From sequence record MW882907: a DNA stretch of 64,000 nucleotides. One strand, written 5' to 3'. The DNA comes from Escherichia phage vB_EcoM_SQ17. The notes under the pieces were generated by a model. The model made no database searches, was not told the origin of the DNA, and saw only the letters and a list, made by a program, of their open reading frames with translations. Shown one piece after another: positions 1 through 40,609 of the stretch. The position numbers and the translations under genes are program-made. Each line of letters begins with the position of its first letter. Positions within the stretch are counted from its first letter, which is position 1.

Positions 1-1323
1 ATCATGCAATGGAGCTACTTTAAACGTTCCTGCTATTGTTTCTGGGCTAATATTCACTTGGCGAATAATACTTGGATACAGAGATGTAAGGTCGAAACTC
101 ATTACATATTTGTATCGATTTGGAATAGGTTCCTTAACAAAAGCGCCGGGATAAGGTTGAACCGGGTGAGAACGACCTTGTGGAATCACCTTGTTCTGCT
201 CTTTAAGGCTATTAAAAATAATAGCATCCCATGTTTTAATTGGGCTAAACACAGATTGAATCTGTATCTTAGCATAATAACCCATGTCCAAACTCAAGTT
301 GATGAACTGACGCTTAGCATCAATTTGCAATACACGATACACGTCGATAATGTTATAAGAAATATATCGTTGGTGATTGCTTTCACGAAGCTTAGAAATA
401 GGGCCGTCATATTTCAGTTTACCAACGTTCAATTCAAATTCTGAAATGTAATCCAGAGAATATGACGGTTGATTGGTAAAAGAGAATTTTTTGTAAAGGT
501 CAATGTAATCAAGAACAGAGATACCGAACAATGTAATGATTTCACGAGAACCATACATGTTTTCAATAACTTTAACACGAGTTTTACGATGTGGTGATAA
601 ACGTTTCGCAGTAGATTCGCCAAAAATATTCTTGATTCGGTTATACACATATGGAATATCAAATGACTCAACGTTCCATCCAGTCAAAATGACAGGAGTT
701 TTCTGTTGCCAGAAGTTGAGATATTCCATCAACAATTCTTTTTCGTTATAGAACGGCATATAAATGATTTTATCGATAATTTCAGATGGAACTTCATCTC
801 CACCTTGTTCTTGAAGCTTAGCCGCAATTTCGATAGACCATTCTTCTACATTACCATATGGAGAATTCAATAGATCAAATACGTAGAACCTGTCGTCAAT
901 TGAGTCATAATGGGTGATAGCATCAATCGGATGTTTTGCTTGTGATGGCTCAGGGAACCCATCCGGAGATGTTACTTCGATGTCGAAGTTAGCCACACGA
1001 ATTTTTGTATGGTCGTATTTGATTTCATAGTTATAAGTGTCAGACAAATACGCCAATTTGAAATCGTCCATGCCAAGTGCTTCAAGACCGATATCTTCCA
1101 TGCGTTTAATCCATTGTGAGGCATCACGCATATTAGCGAACAACTTACGAGTACACGGCTTACCGTAGATATCGAAATATTTCGTAGCCTGACTTTCCGG
1201 ACAATGAGCAAACAGTGATGGTTTATATTCTACTTCACGAGTACGTTCACGGCCGTTAGAATCGATGTAACGTTCAAAAATTGAATCACCAATCTGTTCA
1301 ACCGTTAAGTAAAATTCTTTCAT
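1..1323 (-). CDS. 43: DNA polymerase gp43, N-terminal portion (gene continues beyond window start)
   Basis: Minus-strand ATG at 1323 opens a frame reading MKEFYLTVEQIGDSIFERYIDSNGRERTRE... ...DIEVTSPDGFPEP...; run to position 1 not fully checked for stops; absent from ORF track because edge-truncated; RB69-type family B polymerase N-terminus (from memory). Confidence 0.9.
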   Translation of the reverse strand, partial: MKEFYLTVEQIGDSIFERYIDSNGRERTREVEYKPSLFAHCPESQATKYFDIYGKPCTRKLFANMRDASQWIKRMEDIGLEALGMDDFKLAYLSDTYNYEIKYDHTKIRVANFDIEVTSPDGFPEPSQAKHPIDAITHYDSIDDRFYVFDLLNSPYGNVEEWSIEIAAKLQEQGGDEVPSEIIDKIIYMPFYNEKELLMEYLNFWQQKTPVILTGWNVESFDIPYVYNRIKNIFGESTAKRLSPHRKTRVKVIENMYGSREIITLFGISVLDYIDLYKKFSFTNQPSYSLDYISEFELNVGKLKYDGPISKLRESNHQRYISYNIIDVYRVLQIDAKRQFINLSLDMGYYAKIQIQSVFSPIKTWDAIIFNSLKEQNKVIPQGRSHPVQPYPGAFVKEPIPNRYKYVMSFDLTSLYPSIIRQVNISPETIAGTFKVAPLHD

Positions 1324-1370
1324 TTAATTTCCTTTAGACGAGTTATTGTCTTTTGTTTGTTGATGAACTT

Positions 1371-1398
1371 ATTATACTCCAAATGGGACCGAAGTCCC
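1371..1398 (-). promoter_or_regulatory. regA-43 intergenic element: -10-like TATAAT plus GGGAC-TTCG-GTCCC stem-loop
   Basis: Plus attata at 1371-1376 (TATAAT on minus); perfect 5-bp stem with TTCG loop at 1385-1398; lies between regA stop and gene 43 start. Confidence 0.3.
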
Positions 1399-1404
1399 AT
1401 TGCT

Positions 1405-1773
1405 TTAATTACCAATTGTATATTTTGCTTTCAAAGTCCAGTCATCTTTCTGTTTAAAAGAGATAACACGGAAGTTATTAGTCAGGCCAAACAGATCTTC
1501 ACGAGCAGAGTCTTCAATAACAATCAATCCCCAGTCTTCAAGCAACTGAGCAATCGAATCACGTCGCTGATAGTCTTCACCGTCAATATCAACCTGACGT
1601 CCGTCCATACGCAACATTTCTTTAAAGTGGACGATGTAATATTTACCCTGCTTTTGGAGGATATGACAAGACTGGTAAAGGACTTTATCCTTGTTATTAG
1701 CGATGCCCATACGGGTCAAAGTCTCTTTGACTTTCAGAAAATCTTCAGGGTTCTTCAATTTAATTTCAATCAT
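1405..1773 (-). CDS. regA: translational repressor RegA
   Basis: 122-aa product MIEIKLKNPEDFLKVKETLTRMGIANNKDKVLYQSCHILQ...; conserved position between 62 and 43; second in-frame ATG chosen to avoid overlap with gene 62. Confidence 0.8.
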   Translation of the reverse strand: MIEIKLKNPEDFLKVKETLTRMGIANNKDKVLYQSCHILQKQGKYYIVHFKEMLRMDGRQVDIDGEDYQRRDSIAQLLEDWGLIVIEDSAREDLFGLTNNFRVISFKQKDDWTLKAKYTIGN

Positions 1774-1775
1774 TT

Positions 1776-2339
1776 TTACCATTCCAATGCTAATTTTTTA
1801 AATTGTTTTTGTTCTTTCACATTTTTTGTAACTTCTTTGAGAAACTCATCAGTGACCATGGCCTTCAGTTCTTTAAGGACTATTGGCAACTTGTTATTTT
1901 TTTCAAGGAGCCGCTTATACTCAGTAGCATCATTCATGTTGATTGTGTAATGTTTCATCAACAGTTTGATAACTAGTAACTCTGAAGTGTCTTCGACTAG
2001 TTTAGCCCATTTAGAGAATCGACGACCACGTGGAATTGCCGCCATCATATAGTTGAAGTGCGCTTCATCACTTAATTCAGAACCGACTAAGTTCATCATG
2101 TAAACAGCTGGCATACATTCTGGGAACTGGGATAATGAGTTCTCAACCATAAATTTTGAGTAGTCGACCTGAGCAATTGACATAGATTTCTTTTCATTAA
2201 TAGCATTAATGATTTTAAAGAATTCATTCTCAGGTTTTTCTTTAAACATATCAGCACATTTTTGAATCGCATCAGCGTCATTAGACTTCCATGCAATTTG
2301 GTGCTCGTTAAGCTGGACGTCATCATCGAATAAGTTCAT
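1776..2339 (-). CDS. 62: clamp loader small subunit gp62
   Basis: 187-aa ORF, ATG start, immediately downstream of gene 44 in the conserved 44-62-regA-43 order. Confidence 0.85.
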
Positions 2340-2340
2340 A

Positions 2341-3303
2341 TTATTTCCAAGTCAGTTCGCAGGTCAGTTGAAGAAGCATATACATAACATGTAATTCAAT
2401 ATTACTTGCTAATCCATGAAACTTATTGTTTTCGCCTGCAATTTCGTAAAGCGAAATAATACTTTTACCAGGTGCAACTTGGTCATAACATTCTGAAACT
2501 AATTTATCGATGAACCATGAATAATCTGCGGCATATTTTGGAGCTAATGCACGAAGTTGTTTGATATCTTTGTTCTTCATTGCTTCGATAACATCAGAGA
2601 CTGTGCCACGGTCATTAGTTACGATAGACAAAATACCCGCATCAAGAACACCTTTAGACGAGTACTGGTCTAATTGACCAATTGTACGACGAAAGTCCGG
2701 GAAGTTCTTTTTAACCAGAGCTGCAACAACTTTCATATCAGCGATTTCGATATTTTCATTCTTACAGATTTCAACCATACGATGAATCATTTTCTTCATC
2801 ATCGAGATTTTATCTTCTTCGGTTGGACGACCGAATTCGATAACTCGGCAACGACTACGTAATGGTTCAATAATTCCATCGATGTTGTTAGCAGTAATAA
2901 CAATAGAGCAGTTACTAGAGAATTCTTCCATAAACGTACGAAGGTGACGTTGTGATTCGGCGAGGCCACTACGGTCAAATTCATCAATAACAATAACTTT
3001 AGGCTTGCCTTCCATTGAGACTGAACGAGCGAATGCAGTTAACGGTCCCCGTACAAAATCAATCTTACAATCAGAACCGTTGACGAACATCATTTCAGCG
3101 TTGATATCATTACATAATGCTTTTGCTACGGTTGTTTTACCTGTACCAGGAGAAGGAGAGTGCAAAATAATATGAGGAAGTTTTCCTTTAGATACTAAAG
3201 ACTTGAATGTTTCATGGTCATACGCAGGCAGAATACATTCGTCAATGGAAGAAGGACGATATTTCTGTTCTAGAATGTGTTCTTTGGAATTGATAGTAAT
3301 CAT
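2341..3303 (-). CDS. 44: clamp loader ATPase subunit gp44
   Basis: 320-aa ORF with Walker [12 protein letters not shown], Walker B VIVIDEFD and sensor motifs typical of RFC-like clamp loaders. Confidence 0.9.
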
Positions 3304-3378
3304 GTAATTTTCCTCATTATCATTAAACTGGAGGATTTCTCCTCCATAATCGTATCACAATAAACGTAAAGCTTTGAC

Positions 3379-4065
3379 TTAGAAGTCGTGAGTAGAATCG
3401 GCTTCCATCGCAATAACATAACTTACTTGAGAGCTTTCAAACTTGGCTGCAACTTTATCACCAGCTCCCCACAACATTACTTTATAGTTACCTGGCTGGA
3501 TTTTCATATTAGCCATATTGATTACGAAGTTAAAATTGTTAGAACCGTCATAATCGGTAAGAGTCAAAGAATACTTAGGACGAGTTAGTCCAGAATCTTC
3601 AACTTTATTGTAACCATTGATAACAATTTTACCATCTTTATTTGTAATAGCAATTGTATCAATCTGAAGACCACGTGAAACTCGAAGCAATTGTTGAAGG
3701 TCTTCAGCTTTAATTTCAGTAATCACAGAAGCCACTGGGAATTGAATTGGCTTATTAGGAAAAACAATGGTGCTCTTGTCAGCGGCAGGCCAATAAACCG
3801 TGGAACGTGTATCTGCAATTTTAATATTGCCATCAGTGTGCATTGAAATTTCAGCATCATCAGACACTAGACTCAAAATGCTTAAGAAGCTATTCAAATC
3901 ATAAAGTGCTACGTCAAAATCAATTTCATCAGAGATATTTGCTTCCGCATAAGTGGTGCCATTAACTGCACGAGTCATAATAAATTTACCTTGACTCAGC
4001 AGAATGCCGGAGTTAATAGAGGCAAAGTTTTTCAGAATAGCGATAGTATCTTTAGACAGTTTCAT
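3379..4065 (-). CDS. 45: sliding clamp gp45
   Basis: ATG at 4065 gives MKLSKDTIAILKNFASINSGILLSQGKFIMTRAVNG... (228 aa); matches phage sliding-clamp sequence of RB69 type from memory; track start upstream is TTG. Confidence 0.9.
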   Translation of the reverse strand: MKLSKDTIAILKNFASINSGILLSQGKFIMTRAVNGTTYAEANISDEIDFDVALYDLNSFLSILSLVSDDAEISMHTDGNIKIADTRSTVYWPAADKSTIVFPNKPIQFPVASVITEIKAEDLQQLLRVSRGLQIDTIAITNKDGKIVINGYNKVEDSGLTRPKYSLTLTDYDGSNNFNFVINMANMKIQPGNYKVMLWGAGDKVAAKFESSQVSYVIAMEADSTHDF

Positions 4066-4107
4066 TTTATTTCCTTTCAAGACAATTCAAAGTTTATAAC
4101 AAATTTA

Positions 4108-4524
4108 TTATGCAGCAACCATCTGCTTTTTAATAGCTTCAGGCAGTGATTCAATATATTCTGGAATTTTAGAAGCAACAATTTCACCAGCTGCAATTAG
4201 TTGTTCGTCGGCATCAACACAGTAGAAATCTTCCAGACGCTCAGAACCATCTTTATCAAGAACGATTTTTCCGCCAGCTTCAATAGAATCTTTATAGTGC
4301 TTACGCATCAGATGAATCCACATATCAGATACATCGTTATCAATAAAACCATAAATCATAAAACGAGTTTCTTGTGGCAAAGATTGGAGTTTTTTGGCAC
4401 TTGCGTCATCACAATGCAGGACCCATGCTTTACGAACACGATTATGGTTATGTGGGTTAGCGTCAGTACGGATAGAAGTAACTTTCAGATCAGCAGCAGT
4501 GAAACCTTTAGCAGTAGTAAACAT
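4108..4524 (-). CDS. rpbA: RNA polymerase binding protein RpbA-like
   Basis: 138-aa ORF in the T4 rpbA position between 45.2 and 45; assignment by synteny and size only. Confidence 0.5.
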   Translation of the reverse strand: MFTTAKGFTAADLKVTSIRTDANPHNHNRVRKAWVLHCDDASAKKLQSLPQETRFMIYGFIDNDVSDMWIHLMRKHYKDSIEAGGKIVLDKDGSERLEDFYCVDADEQLIAAGEIVASKIPEYIESLPEAIKKQMVAA

Positions 4525-4536
4525 ATTATTTCTCTC

Positions 4537-4737
4537 TTATTCGTAGAAGTCGGTAACTGTCCATGCGGAATTGCGATTAGACATTATTTTATTATACTCA
4601 TCTTTAAAAGCAGATTTGAGCATTTGTTCAGTAACAATATGTTCTTCACCTGAAAACGTATTGGTCAAAACATATTTTTTAATTTCAGGGACAACGAGAA
4701 GATGTTGTCCGGTTGAATACTCCATGTTGTTCTCCAT
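4537..4737 (-). CDS. hypothetical protein (45.2-like small ORF)
   Basis: 66-aa ORF, ATG start, between gene 46 and rpbA. Confidence 0.45.
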   Translation of the reverse strand: MENNMEYSTGQHLLVVPEIKKYVLTNTFSGEEHIVTEQMLKSAFKDEYNKIMSNRNSAWTVTDFYE

Positions 4738-4779
4738 TTAATTTGATGTGGTCATTATAACCACATCGTGTTAAAGCGT

Positions 4780-6468
4780 TTATGAAACAGTCATTACAGT
4801 AAATCGTCCAACTTTGCTCATTTGAAGATGTTGTCCATAAGCTTGTGGGTCATGGTCTCTGTGACTAATTATAAACACGTTTGCATCGGTTAGAGAGTTA
4901 AGAATTGTTGAAATAGCTTTAATACCTTCAGAATCAGTCGCGGAATCCATGACTTCGTCCATAATTAATGTATTGATTCTAACACCAGAGACCTTTTCAG
5001 CAATATCTCGCCATGTAAACAACAATGCGATATCGATACGCGCTTTTTCGCCTTGACTAAATGAAGCATAACTGAACTCTTCACGGCCACGTGATTTTAT
5101 AGATTCATTGAATTCTTCATCAATAGAAAACACGTAATCAGCTTCCATGATTTTAAGATAATGGTTAATCTGCTTGTTGAACAGAGGCACATATTTTTTA
5201 ATGATAGCACCTTTAATACCAGAATCTTTTAACATATCTGTGATAATACCACGATGGTATTTTTCAAGAACGATATCAGATTTTGTTTTAATGATTTTAT
5301 CAAGTTCTTTTTGAAGCAAAGCTATCTCATCGGCATGGTCGATAAATTCCGCTGAGGCTTGTTCTATTGCAGCTTTAACTTTCTTAGCTTTATCAATAGT
5401 GGCAATCATTGCTTGTTTCTTGGTACGAATATCAGATGCAAGGTCCTGTTTAGTCTTAACATTAGCTCTATATTCGTCCACTAGGACACTCAGATTATCT
5501 CTGTGACATGTAAGTTGCTCGAATGAGTGATTACATTCGTGAAGCTTATCGGTAATCTTAGAGACAATAGGATCACCCTGGTGCAACTGTGATGCACAAG
5601 TAGGACATGTGCCACCGTCATGATACATCTTAATAACTTTGTTATATGAGTCGATTTTAGATTTAATCAAGAATGCTTCTTGTCCGATCTTGTTGAATGC
5701 CTCAGTAGGGTCTTCATCAAGAACGATATTAAGTAGACGCTCGTTAGCTTCTTCGATTTCTGCTTTTAATGAACGAGCTTCTTTGGCTAGGTCGTCATAC
5801 ATATTCTGTAGACGCGCTACATTATCACCAGATAATTTCTTTTGACGTTCGATATTCTCGTTATAAATCTTAATTTGTTGGATAATACCATCTTTCTTGG
5901 CGTCGAGAACTTGTCCCTGGGAATTAAGTTCTCGAACTTGAGACTTATTGATTTTATCCATTTCAGCGAGTGTGCCGACTTCTAAAAGGTCTTCGACAAG
6001 TTTTCTACGAGCAGGGGTGCTAAGAGCCATGAAAGGGGTATACCCTGCCGTCCCAAGCACAACGATTTGTTTAAAAGACGCGTATGACATTCCGATGCTA
6101 CGTTCAAATTCTTCTTGGAAGTCACGACTGCTGGCAGATTCATCGAGACGAACACCGTCAACGGAGATTTCGAAAATATTGGGCTTTTGGCCACGTTTAA
6201 TGAAGTATTTTTTACCATCGAATTCCATCCAAAGCTCAACTAAGAGCTCTTTCTTGTTCGTGCTATTAATGATTTGCCCTTTCTTAACATCACGAAATGG
6301 TTTACCGAAAAGTCCGAAAGTAATGGCTTCTAACATCGTAGATTTACCACCACCATTTTTACCTGTGATTAAGGTCTTTTGGACTTTATCTAATTGGATA
6401 TCGATAAAATTTTGCCCAACAGACATTATATTTTTATAACGAACACGATTTAATTTAAATGTTTTCAC
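4780..6468 (-). CDS. 46: recombination endonuclease subunit gp46 (Rad50/SbcC-like ATPase)
   Basis: 562-aa ORF; N-terminal Walker A GKNGGGKST, long coiled-coil middle, C-terminal signature and Walker B LIMDEVMDS; start codon appears to be GTG. Confidence 0.9.
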   Translation of the reverse strand: MKTFKLNRVRYKNIMSVGQNFIDIQLDKVQKTLITGKNGGGKSTMLEAITFGLFGKPFRDVKKGQIINSTNKKELLVELWMEFDGKKYFIKRGQKPNIFEISVDGVRLDESASSRDFQEEFERSIGMSYASFKQIVVLGTAGYTPFMALSTPARRKLVEDLLEVGTLAEMDKINKSQVRELNSQGQVLDAKKDGIIQQIKIYNENIERQKKLSGDNVARLQNMYDDLAKEARSLKAEIEEANERLLNIVLDEDPTEAFNKIGQEAFLIKSKIDSYNKVIKMYHDGGTCPTCASQLHQGDPIVSKITDKLHECNHSFEQLTCHRDNLSVLVDEYRANVKTKQDLASDIRTKKQAMIATIDKAKKVKAAIEQASAEFIDHADEIALLQKELDKIIKTKSDIVLEKYHRGIITDMLKDSGIKGAIIKKYVPLFNKQINHYLKIMEADYVFSIDEEFNESIKSRGREEFSYASFSQGEKARIDIALLFTWRDIAEKVSGVRINTLIMDEVMDSATDSEGIKAISTILNSLTDANVFIISHRDHDPQAYGQHLQMSKVGRFTVMTVS

Positions 6469-37952: not shown

Positions 37953-38909
37953 TTATTTGAAAGGTTTTACCATATGGAAATTTTGTTTGAAACGTTTGAC
38001 GTAATCGTCATGTCCTAAGCTTTGGTACATACTTACTACTTTGCTGTAGTTTTCCCAGGCATACTCACGGAACCAACCAGAGGTGATGCTTGTGCAGACT
38101 TTTTCCAATGCCATCATGAAACTGGCTTCAGGGTTAATTTTAAAGTCATTAGGAATTTGAGAACGTTCTAATGCTAGTACACATGATTCTTCGTATACAC
38201 CGGCCAATTTGACCATTTCTGGTAATGATTCAAACTTCTCGCGTGAGGTCATGACTTCAGAACCGTCTTTCATATAAAATGTATACGCTGGACAGTCTGT
38301 TAGTGCAATGGCTTCATGAATAGTATCATGGTCATATGTATAGATGTCATCTTTAAAGAACGCACTTTTAGAAGTGTCAAGAACCGGGTGAGCATAGTTC
38401 AAGGTTTCTTTCTGGCGTTTCAGCATAATTTCAGTAAGTTCATCGTTCAGTGTAACACCTTTACCACGAAGATACTGAATATGGTTCATAGTCTTTAAAA
38501 AGAATGGATTATTTTTCTTGAAACGATGAGACATCTTAATGGCAAGACATATCTCAGGAGTTGCCCAGTAAAACCCGTTCAAACGGTCTTTAGTCAAATT
38601 TTTCTTGGCGTATTTTAAAAGGCCATAAGAAGACGTGAAATCTTCAGGAGTGAGTTCACCGACTAATTCACGGACATTAGTGATTGCCGGAACAATATAT
38701 GCTTCAAAATGAGTTTCGCGTCCATTATGGAAGCATTTGAAAACTTGGACATCAGGGTTATCTTGATGAACATATACACCCATCATTTGATTTTTGAATG
38801 CATTCCAAGAACCTTGGTCTGCAATAAAGTCCCAGTCACTATTTTTGATAGCGTTAGAATCAATAAGACCATGATAGTGAAGTGCACGAGAACCAATAAC
38901 TAACATCAT
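37953..38909 (-). CDS. hypothetical protein (possible NTase-fold; weak)
   Basis: 318-aa ORF, ATG ATG start; N-terminal IGSRALHYHGLIDSNAIKNSDWDFIAD loosely resembles G-S...D-x-D nucleotidyltransferase motif. Confidence 0.5.
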   Translation of the reverse strand: MMLVIGSRALHYHGLIDSNAIKNSDWDFIADQGSWNAFKNQMMGVYVHQDNPDVQVFKCFHNGRETHFEAYIVPAITNVRELVGELTPEDFTSSYGLLKYAKKNLTKDRLNGFYWATPEICLAIKMSHRFKKNNPFFLKTMNHIQYLRGKGVTLNDELTEIMLKRQKETLNYAHPVLDTSKSAFFKDDIYTYDHDTIHEAIALTDCPAYTFYMKDGSEVMTSREKFESLPEMVKLAGVYEESCVLALERSQIPNDFKINPEASFMMALEKVCTSITSGWFREYAWENYSKVVSMYQSLGHDDYVKRFKQNFHMVKPFK

Positions 38910-38933: not shown

Positions 38934-39185
38934 TTAAATTTCACGACATGCGATATCATATTCATCCCAGAGGTCATCATGTGAAGCCTCTACCAATGGA
39001 ACGATTGTACCATTTATGTCTTCGTTATAAGGGCAAATTGTACAGTGTGCATCTTCAAATCGGATGCCTTTGTGTTCAGATTTTTTATAACGCATATCGA
39101 ATATCTTTGCAAACTTTTCACGAGTAATGGTTTTAGCAACCACTTCGGTTCCGATACTTTCGTAATAAATCATTGTGGACTCCAT
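38934..39185 (-). CDS. hypothetical protein
   Basis: 83-aa ORF, ATG start, Cys/His-containing. Confidence 0.45.
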   Translation of the reverse strand: MESTMIYYESIGTEVVAKTITREKFAKIFDMRYKKSEHKGIRFEDAHCTICPYNEDINGTIVPLVEASHDDLWDEYDIACREI

Positions 39186-39201: not shown

Positions 39202-39231
39202 ACTATAACATAGCCCTATCTTGTTGTAAAC
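39202..39231 (-). promoter_or_regulatory. T4-type early promoter
   Basis: Minus strand GTTTAC, spacer, TATAGT. Confidence 0.5.
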
Positions 39232-39235
39232 TGTT

Positions 39236-39433
39236 TTAGCAAGAATAACTAGATGATACCCAGCCTTGAACAGTAATGCTATTATTGGATAATGAGATCG
39301 CGTCCTGGAGATTCAGACCTGCGTTATCTTCAATCCACAATGTAACTTCTTCGCGTTCTTCTGTTGCAATTTGGAACAGGTTTTCCAGAGCAGCTACTGC
39401 CGTACGTACAGCACAATCTAATTCACGAGACAT
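39236..39433 (-). CDS. small protein, C-terminal GW-x-SS-x-x-C family, copy 1
   Basis: 65-aa ORF ending ...ITVQGWVSSSYSC. Confidence 0.45.
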   Translation of the reverse strand: MSRELDCAVRTAVAALENLFQIATEEREEVTLWIEDNAGLNLQDAISLSNNSITVQGWVSSSYSC

Positions 39434-39442
39434 ATGGTTTCC

Positions 39443-39715
39443 TTAGCAAGTGTGAGAAGATGCAATCCAACCACCAGTTTCGAGGCTCAGGTTGTAGTCG
39501 TATTGGTAAACGTCAGCCCATTCGGCATAGCCGTTTTTTGTACAACGTTCAAGATCGGCTTTAAGTTGTCCGGGTGAATGATAGGTTCCACCCATACCAT
39601 AAGCTGGATACAAGTTGAATGTTGTGTTTTGTTTATCAGCAATTTCTTTGGCAGCCTCAATAGCTGCATAGATTTTTGCTACGGCTTCAGCCAGTTCGGT
39701 TTGTTCTTTAGACAT
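39443..39715 (-). CDS. small protein, C-terminal GW-x-SS-x-x-C family, copy 2
   Basis: 90-aa ORF ending ...ETGGWIASSHTC. Confidence 0.45.
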   Translation of the reverse strand: MSKEQTELAEAVAKIYAAIEAAKEIADKQNTTFNLYPAYGMGGTYHSPGQLKADLERCTKNGYAEWADVYQYDYNLSLETGGWIASSHTC

Positions 39716-39768
39716 AATGATTCCTTAGCACATCGCAGAAGACGAAACCCAAGCACCTTTGGTAATAG
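39716..39768 (-). pseudogene. remnant of a third GW-x-SS-x-x-C family gene (C-terminal fragment only)
   Basis: Frame without start codon encodes ...FIPSITKGAWVSSSAMC then TAA; upstream in-frame stop. Confidence 0.3.
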
Positions 39769-39798: not shown

Positions 39799-40314
39799 TT
39801 AAAGCAAATCAATCATTTTAACGGTTGGCAAAACGATTTCTTCTTCAATATAAGCAAATTCGACACGTTCAACTACACGCAAGAAATCATAATCATAATA
39901 TTCAGAAGCATGGCCAAGAATATCAGTGAGACCTTCTGATACCAAATATCCATTCTCACGGAACAGGTCAAATACACGTGATTCGTCTTCTTCAGATTTA
40001 TTACCGAGGTCGACTTCAATATCAAAGACCTTTTTAATGAATTCTGGATAAAGCTGGTCCGAGAACAGTCCTTCAACCAAGTATTCATAGATTAAAAGCG
40101 AGCAATCACTGAATAGTGTATTACCACAGTAACGTTCAGCTTTAGTACTAGAATGACGACTCTTAAATTTCTTCAAGAGATATTTAAACTGTTGGATCTC
40201 ATGCTCTTCTACACCAAATAATGTTTTGGTTTTATAATTGTCGCCATCATTTTCCCAAGTAGTGACATCAATTACGTAACCTTTAGGAATTGTACTGCCT
40301 AAACAAATATTCAT
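39799..40314 (-). CDS. hypothetical protein
   Basis: 171-aa ORF, acidic. Confidence 0.5.
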   Translation of the reverse strand: MNICLGSTIPKGYVIDVTTWENDGDNYKTKTLFGVEEHEIQQFKYLLKKFKSRHSSTKAERYCGNTLFSDCSLLIYEYLVEGLFSDQLYPEFIKKVFDIEVDLGNKSEEDESRVFDLFRENGYLVSEGLTDILGHASEYYDYDFLRVVERVEFAYIEEEIVLPTVKMIDLL

Positions 40315-40318
40315 TTAC

Positions 40319-40609
40319 TCACCGTACCATATTAATGTAATTATATTCAATGCAACGCAATTTCAAAGGATTCTTGAAAATATCATATTCAAGAGGGCCT
40401 TTTTCTGTTTCAATAAAGAAATCAAAGTTAACTGTGTTAAATTTACCATCTTCACAGAGTAATTTAACCTGTGAAGACGAACGGTCGATATAAACCTTTT
40501 CAACTTCAAAAATAGTCAAAATACCATAGTCATCGACCAGTGCTTTAGCTGCACGTTGATCGCTTTCATATCCATTCTCGACAGATTTTACTTTAGCATA
40601 AAGAATCAT
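40319..40609 (-). CDS. hypothetical protein
   Basis: 96-aa ORF. Confidence 0.5.
   Translation of the reverse strand: MILYAKVKSVENGYESDQRAAKALVDDYGILTIFEVEKVYIDRSSSQVKLLCEDGKFNTVNFDFFIETEKGPLEYDIFKNPLKLRCIEYNYINMVR

Follow-up and report, generated by a model that had tools for sequence, protein, structure and literature searches.

Pol-beta-type nucleotidyltransferases nucleotidylylate proteins: GlnD acts on PII, GlnE on glutamine synthetase, MntA on HepT and DrrA on Rab1. In lanthipeptides, serine is activated and eliminated and then attacked by cysteine. The anti-defence sponge proteins Acb2/Vs.4, Tad1 and Tad2 are not known to have an invariant C-terminal Cys motif or an obligate enzyme neighbour. 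The locus described here lies in a stretch of 64,000 nucleotides (nt) of Escherichia phage vB_EcoM_SQ17 (sequence record MW882907), which at its full length is referred to as the window; the phage is RB69-like and T4-type (genus Mosigvirus), and the genes of the region are on the minus strand. At positions 39236-39768, small genes encode proteins that end in a common tail rich in serine and closed by a cysteine, and downstream of them lies a gene for an enzyme-like protein of 318 amino acids (aa). To judge by gene order in many phages, the two form a two-component genetic module, consisting of an array of tail-bearing small proteins and one conserved enzyme-like protein. The principal features, with RB69 open reading frame (ORF) names taken from the PhAPEC2 annotation, are:

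37953..38909, minus strand: gene for the 318-aa enzyme-like protein, homolog of RB69 ORF134c, with the domains DUF7277 and DUF7275 (Pfam E 2.4e-27 and 2.2e-78) and membership in PHROG 2141
39236..39433, minus strand: gene for the 65-aa paralog, homolog of RB69 ORF136c, PHROG 4882 (phrog_4882, E 1.1e-36)
39239-39262, minus strand: tail of the 65-aa gene, W-V-S-S-S-Y-S-C (...QGWVSSSYSC), followed by TAA
39443..39715, minus strand: gene for the 90-aa paralog, homolog of RB69 ORF137c, PHROG 899 (phrog_899, E 2.7e-18)
39446-39469, minus strand: tail of the 90-aa gene, within G-G-W-I-A-S-S-H-T-C
39725..39751, minus strand: scar of a third paralog (ORF139c), the last 8 codons W-V-S-S-S-A-M-C plus stop, matching the 3' end of the intact gene

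Comparison with described systems

The small genes of the window are clear members of catalogued families without a function, PHROG 899 and PHROG 4882 (RB69 ORF137c, ORF139c and ORF136c). The PHROG catalogues provide no function, no motif and no link of these families to each other or to the enzyme; these links come from the present analysis, and no publication was found that describes the tail motif, relates PHROG 899 to 4882 or links them to the enzyme.

The resemblance to protein nucleotidylylation consists in a GS...DxD...E pattern in the N-terminal part of the enzyme-like protein, followed by a helical domain, and in small partners with invariant hydroxyl residues. Unlike the enzymes of those systems, the protein from the window has several diverged candidate substrates per enzyme, is restricted to phages and lacks a significant sequence or structure match to any of them; moreover, the known nucleotidylylation targets present a Tyr in a loop, whereas the small family presents a C-terminal Ser/Cys motif. 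Clusters for ribosomally synthesized and post-translationally modified peptides (RiPPs) are similar in that tandem short genes (1-6) stand beside a single conserved enzyme gene, in that a part for recognition is conserved, and in the Ser...Cys motif with S-x-x-C spacing, which in some members occurs as repeated W-x-S-S-x-C units. In contrast to RiPP precursors, the body of the small proteins is predicted with confidence to be a folded domain, not a leader to be discarded, the would-be ‘core’ is the most conserved and not the most variable segment, and no LanB, LanM or kinase-lyase, radical-SAM, YcaO, protease or exporter gene was detected. Because defining features of each kind of system, such as similarity to a known nucleotidyltransferase fold or a recognised RiPP enzyme class, were looked for and not found, the module is assigned to neither.

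The tandem early or accessory proteins of T4-type hyperplastic regions and the phage anti-defence sponges are likewise small, acidic and encoded by non-essential genes, and the locus shares with such regions its position in a plastic, early-gene segment between e and the transfer RNA (tRNA) cluster that is subject to frequent deletion and shuffling. The family resembles none of the solved sponges or inhibitors, either in sequence or in fold. The module is best described as an enzyme/small-protein accessory module in phage plastic regions. Many small early genes of large virulent phages are unexplained, and one set of them now has a sharp and testable signature: a strictly C-terminal Trp-Ser-Ser-Cys motif, the lack of a solved fold relative, tandem diversification and near-obligate coupling to an enzyme-like gene.

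A C-terminal tail constrained at the protein level

A six-frame scan of the window for W-x-[SA]-S-S-x-x-C followed by a stop returned exactly three matches, all on the minus strand; these tails (W-[VI]-[SA]-S-S-x-x-C-stop) are packed into 520 bp at 39236-39751. They are the ones in the preliminary description of this DNA, which had placed a shared tail in two ORFs and in a start-less frame reading ...KGAWVSSSAMC (tail 39728-39751, stop 39725-39727), within a span of 39236-39768 that is correct. A chance origin of the three tails is ruled out, given that the amino-acid composition of the six frames predicts 0.0026 matches and that none occurred in 300 shuffles. Also rejected was gene conversion or a DNA repeat between the copies: when the 3' segments are aligned, the tail is kept in the protein, whereas the DNAs are unlike at synonymous positions (TCA/GCA/TCG; AGT/TCT/TCT), so that the three tails do not represent a repeat at the DNA level.

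Searches with the 90-aa protein recovered 34 relatives by phmmer against 1.84 billion representative proteins and 257 by profile search. These relatives measure 63-150 aa, are all unnamed, and none carries a Pfam domain. Invariant columns of their alignment (A4) are F33, Y39, G42, W83, S86 and C90. At the extreme C-terminus, W-x-[SATPG]-S-[STA]-x-x-C is found in 137 of 139 database relatives, and the protein ends exactly on the Cys in 128 of them. The family, made up of small alpha/beta proteins of 60-150 aa, is acidic as a whole (median isoelectric point (pI) 4.5, with 83% below pI 5), and the tail is kept also in divergent paralogs that lack the YGMGG hairpin described below. Outside T4-like Escherichia phages, the tail was found in further T4-like genomes, including those of Klebsiella, Enterobacter, Edwardsiella and Yersinia phages.

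The coding DNA of the tail varies freely. Among 130 distinct tail DNAs, all six Ser codons are used at the conserved Ser positions, of which the first is invariant and the second is Ser in 127; the Cys is encoded by TGC or TGT, and the stop is TAA, TGA or TAG. No Rfam family matches over the tail region. On these grounds, free synonymous variation together with the lack of an Rfam match, an RNA or DNA explanation is refuted, and the tail, which the preliminary description had proposed as a protein signal with an overlapping RNA element as the alternative, is, as its codons show, constrained at the protein level.

Some members carry two to three W-x-S-S-x-C or W-E-S-S-x-E-G-W units in a row, for example ...NWDSSDCGYDDPPHWDSSDCEY and ...RWESSSEGWESSSEGWVSSSSQC (members with extra units: L025 4458-4688, L127 2087-2299 and L131 2847-3134; proteins P0108, P0119 and P0138). 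Another protein, P0081, apparently consists of two family members fused via loss of a stop codon.

Linkage to an enzyme-like gene

The association with the enzyme-like gene was established in both directions. In the forward set, 39 viral loci were retrieved with the small-protein profile and all neighbouring ORFs were clustered. Two to five tandem family members are present in 30 of these loci, and a single neighbour proved universal: a protein of ~300-340 aa, whose gene follows the family members a short way downstream, in the same orientation, in 38 of the 39 loci, the remaining contig ending before this position. The universal neighbour is the homolog of the 318-aa gene of the window, where 326 nt separate the 65-aa gene from the 318-aa gene that follows it on the same strand. 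In the reverse set, 80 loci were retrieved with the enzyme profile and the family was sought within 3 kb upstream; it was present on the same strand in 70 loci when detected by hidden Markov model (HMM) and in 76 when detected by HMM or motif. At one further locus of the reverse set (L114), beyond these 76, the tail has the divergent form W-E-S-S-E-S-S-E-C. Immediately upstream of the enzyme gene, the family occurs in 1-6 copies per locus; the last small gene and the enzyme gene are separated by a median of 345 nt, and by at most 100 nt in 28% of loci. Besides enzyme and family, no conserved neighbours exist outside the T4-like subset.

The enzyme is encoded in 733 phage records, with hosts including Escherichia, Klebsiella, Acinetobacter, Aeromonas, Pseudomonas and Vibrio. 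Among 185,579 bacterial and archaeal species genomes it was found on 7 contigs, all metagenome-assembled; on 5 of these the small family stands beside it, and in the other two (L126 and L129) it had no match. The pair of small protein and enzyme is, as far as these genomes indicate, essentially phage-restricted.

Shorter and divergent homologs of the enzyme (248-263 aa) are encoded by Gordonia phage ClubL, Streptomyces phage Wakanda and Vibrio phage KVP40 (L132 2809-3890, L133 2851-3893 and L134 2360-3417). No W-x-S-S-x-x-C genes lie near these three, and the enzymes there overlap stop-to-start with a different, acidic/aromatic protein of ~96-99 aa, the copies of which are weakly related to each other (mutual BLASTP E 0.002). 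Possibly the enzyme superfamily has in these proteins small partners of a second type; since the divergent homologs are translationally coupled to a ~98-aa protein, the enzyme seems to be always paired with a small partner.

Character of the enzyme-like protein

In an alignment of 26 homologs (A6), which are 32-73% identical, ~34 residues are invariant, most of them polar. The N-terminal part displays the pattern hhIGSxAL...(R/K)xxxDxDhI...E, in which G6 and D25-x-D27 are invariant while S7 (in A6 and in A7) and E69 (in A7) are conserved to at least 90%, as a pattern match only; further conserved blocks are LKMSHRY, YDHDxIHEA, ALERSQIP and KVCTSITSGWFREFAWENY. The C-terminal domain is so conserved that clustering at 50% identity is uninformative. 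This distribution of conserved residues makes the presumed enzymatic character of the protein well supported. The GS...DxD...E pattern is reminiscent of motif I of Pol-beta-type nucleotidyltransferases, and homologs from Acinetobacter phages were labelled ‘putative nucleotidyltransferase’ by their depositors. A nucleotidyltransferase identity of the 318-aa protein is only a lead.

Relationship of the paralogs

The preliminary description had regarded the N-terminal bodies of the small proteins as different. They are indeed diverged, but not unrelated. Over 73 aligned residues, the 90-aa and 101-aa proteins share 29% identity (BLASTP E 2e-6), and the intact 101-aa copy, encoded by ORF139c in relatives of the window phage, also belongs to PHROG 899 (E 2e-23). 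Between the 65-aa and 90-aa proteins, BLASTP aligned the tail alone; when a profile of 65-aa orthologs, which are 57-66% identical in Enterobacter, Klebsiella and Edwardsiella T4-like phages, was compared with a PHROG-899-type alignment, hhalign gave a full-length match over 63 columns (93%, E 2.7e-7). From the BLASTP, PHROG and profile-profile matches, all three copies are anciently diverged paralogs. They share one architecture, in which an amphipathic helix at the N-terminus is followed by a beta-hairpin, then by an insert that varies and is as a rule acidic, and finally by the tail. The N-terminal helix (..IAD..g.xF) and the Y-G-M-G-G-x-Y hairpin are present in the 90-aa protein (YGMGGTY); the hairpin is degenerate in the 101-aa type (YGSGRTY) and not recognisable in the 65-aa type, which for this reason is considered a divergent offshoot. 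The same trio occurs in the same order in Dhakavirus-type Escherichia phages and in Klebsiella, Enterobacter, Edwardsiella and Yersinia T4-like phages. The suggestion that these genes are a small family under diversification is supported, as tandem arrays of 2-6 diverged copies recur in many unrelated phages.

For the 90-aa protein, AlphaFold2 yields a confident model (predicted local distance difference test (pLDDT) 94.8) that matched no solved fold. Searches of the small proteins against Pfam, NCBIfam, PADLOC and PDB sequences returned nothing significant, and the matches in BFVD were uncharacterised phage homologs only.

The third copy and other deletions at the locus

The start-less third frame, originally taken for a decayed copy, is a remnant of a third paralog; it did not arise by mutational decay, being the 8-codon scar of a microhomology-mediated deletion of 5,558 bp. 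In the sister phages 308Ecol101PP and PhAPEC2, ORF139c is intact, encodes 101 aa ending in EGAWVSSSAMC and lies directly upstream of ORF137c; the scar in the window is identical to the 3' end of this gene. By megablast, the match of the window to phages with an intact ORF139c stops at 39767, and the match to the region downstream of ORF151c starts at 39752, so that both overlap at 39752-39767. A three-way alignment places the join inside a 16-nt imperfect repeat, which reads TATTACCAAAGGTGCT beside ORF151c and TATTACTGAAGGTGCT within ORF139c; the parental sites in PhAPEC2 (L123 7307 and L123 1749, respectively) are 5,558 bp apart. The features on the two sides of the scar are:

39752..39767, minus strand: deletion-junction microhomology TATTACCAAAGGTGCT (three-way alignment with the PhAPEC2 parental sites)
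39799..40314, minus strand: gene for a 171-aa protein, homolog of RB69 ORF151c, which borders the deletion on its upstream side

In undeleted relatives, the ORF151c homolog is 5.6 kb away, past the tRNA cluster. This cluster (Arg, Asx and Met in PhAPEC2) was lost in the deletion together with homologs of T4 e.3, e.4, e.5, e.6, e.8 and frd.3. Of ORF139c only the last 8 codons are left; the scar still holds TAAGGA, the Shine-Dalgarno sequence of the 90-aa gene, along with the beginning of that gene. No tRNA genes were found in the whole 64-kb window, which is consistent with the loss of the cluster in the deletion. Family membership and deletion history, taken together, can be regarded as practically certain.

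Two other Mosigviruses have undergone independent deletions here. In Escherichia phage AV115 (OR352945.1, L003 2827-3138), the first 98 codons of a 167-aa gene, which is intact at L001 7426-7929, continue in the same reading frame into SSSALC, the end of the ORF139c homolog, resulting in a chimeric 103-aa gene; the junction is a 15-nt microhomology, GA(T/A)GGTG(A/C)TTGGGTT. The family tail is here borne by an unrelated protein body. In Escherichia phage EP32B (OR544955.1, L002 3330-3640), a 5' fragment of a tRNA gene is joined to the interior of ORF136c, which is left start-less; the 53-aa coding sequence annotated at the deleted site lies in another frame. To judge from these events, the locus is a deletion-prone accessory region.

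Proposed role of the module and alternative explanations

The proposed explanation is that the small proteins act as partners or substrates of the 318-aa enzyme-like protein. The enzyme would recognise the C-terminal W-x-[S/A/P]-S-S-x-x-C-COOH and probably modify it covalently, for example on the invariant Ser or the terminal Cys. Nucleotidylylation is the leading chemical guess because of the Pol-beta-nucleotidyltransferase-like GS...DxD...E in the N-terminal domain. The module would be expressed early and serve an accessory role in host takeover or counter-defence; early expression is suggested by the early-gene location, by strong Shine-Dalgarno sequences with stop/Shine-Dalgarno overlap and by an early-promoter-like site after the array (see below). 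The components of this proposal differ in strength. A functional coupling of the family to the enzyme is likely. Recognition or modification at the tail is a serious possibility; the near-obligate linkage to the enzyme-like gene lends indirect weight to the idea, already voiced in the preliminary description, that the tail is a signal for modification or interaction. Any specific chemistry is doubtful at best. As an overall reading, small proteins that are partners or substrates of the enzyme, with the tail as the recognised or modified element, appear on balance to be the best explanation, and we hold it with some reserve.

In a more far-reaching variant, which we consider improbable, the enzyme-family cassette would be a new protein-maturation system acting on the C-terminal W-x-S-S-x-x-C of small scaffold proteins. 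Nucleotidylylation of Ser, elimination and addition of the Cys might then create a C-terminal S-x-x-C thioether ring; alternatively, a nucleotide might become linked to Cys or Ser, or Trp and Cys might be cross-linked. Host takeover or counter-defence in large virulent phages might then make use of the modified proteins or of peptide products derived from them.

Several observations weigh against the enzyme acting on the small proteins through their tail. A detectable partner is missing at 2-4 of the 80 enzyme loci. EP32B retains the 318-aa enzyme gene without an intact tail-bearing gene at the locus; since EP32B has lost all of the small proteins and the window phage one, the individual proteins, and possibly the pairing, are dispensable on laboratory hosts. 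With regard to chemistry, the nucleotidyltransferase lead derives from a short motif and third-party annotation: profile searches of the PDB with the enzyme, at full length and as N-terminal domain, and searches of Pfam, NCBIfam and PADLOC gave no nucleotidyltransferase match, hhalign against AadA and KNTase remained below 1% probability, and the single-sequence AlphaFold model of the enzyme is unusable (pLDDT 36); as a whole, the test for such a fold had low power. Finally, W83 is located in the beta-strand 81-85 of the confident 90-aa model, and because the Trp lies in a strand, conservation of the tail may be partly structural.

The last point leads to the alternative that survives best, although we deem it rather unlikely: the tail may be purely structural, the Trp anchoring the last beta-strand in the core and SS..C capping the fold. 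The small proteins would then act alone as early binders in host takeover or anti-defence, as sponges, inhibitors or DNA mimics, and adjacency to the enzyme would reflect co-inheritance. Such a view accommodates the strand position of W83 in a compact fold, the acidity of the family, which is typical of early phage inhibitor proteins, the diversification of paralogs in tandem, which is typical of arms-race genes, and the persistence of the enzyme in EP32B without the small proteins. It accounts less well for a linkage that persists in phages that differ greatly and have no other conserved neighbour in common. The strict ending on Cys is hard to ascribe to packing alone, and the tail outlives the degeneration of the hairpin in the paralogs. 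The additional internal W-x-S-S-x-C units, furthermore, sit in acidic regions that are predicted to be linkers, which favours a short recognised motif over a purely structural strand.

Far less probable is a pair resembling toxin and antitoxin, in which the enzyme would be a nucleotidyltransferase-type toxin (cf. AbiEii/MenT and MNT-HEPN) and the small proteins would inhibit it by inserting the tail into the active site. Its appeal lies in the small upstream genes, which are often close to the enzyme gene, and in the GS...(R/K)xxxDxD pattern, which presumably resembles motif I of such nucleotidyltransferases. However, no AbiEii/DUF1814, MNT or HEPN model of Pfam and no PADLOC model matched, and up to six diverged partners per single enzyme are unlike a toxin-antitoxin architecture. 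The pair, practically lacking in bacterial genomes, is confined to large virulent phages, and EP32B, which has the enzyme but no intact partner, is viable.

A nucleic-acid element, be it a repeated cassette for recombination or regulation, a structured RNA or a signal for translational coupling, is refuted as the explanation of the tail: the TGC-TAA-GGA overlap of stop and Shine-Dalgarno sequence does recur between tandem copies and two independent deletions (window and AV115) end in the tail-coding DNA of ORF139c, but the 65-aa copy is followed by AACAG and not by GGA, the tail is conserved in phages with unrelated DNA, and chance microhomologies of 8-15 nt account for the deletion ends, quite apart from the codon usage and the Rfam result given above.

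If the enzyme does act on the tail, the module would represent a new phage-specific pathway of protein modification or maturation; otherwise the family still makes up a well-defined set of candidate host-interaction proteins. Natural deletion variants for comparison are at hand in the window phage, EP32B and AV115.

Further features of the locus

The remaining features of the region are:

38934..39185, minus strand: gene for an 83-aa protein, homolog of RB69 ORF135c, between the paralogs and the enzyme-like gene
39202..39230, minus strand: early-promoter-like site TTTACA-17-TATAGT with TG extension, just past the stop of the 65-aa gene (consensus scan, 10/12)
39434-39445, minus strand: TGC-TAA-GGA-N6-ATG at the junction of the 90-aa and 65-aa genes, as at 39716..39727
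39716..39727, minus strand: scar stop overlapping the Shine-Dalgarno sequence of the 90-aa gene (TAAGGA), 9 nt before the ATG (read from the sequence)

A sub-threshold Rfam match to snoR130, a eukaryotic small nucleolar RNA, at 40240-40355 on the minus strand (28.8 bits vs. a gathering threshold of 40, E 0.048) falls within coding sequence and is almost certainly due to chance. Across the tandem arrays of the family, GGAA... is the commonest sequence after the stop. The 83-aa ORF, which contains a conserved ...FEDAHC.I.PYNED... segment, is present at about 12 of the 80 enzyme loci, all of them T4-like, and probably does not belong to the core of the module. Because the early-promoter-like site follows the stop of the 65-aa gene, the array on the one hand and the 83-aa and 318-aa genes on the other may be separate transcription units in the window phage.

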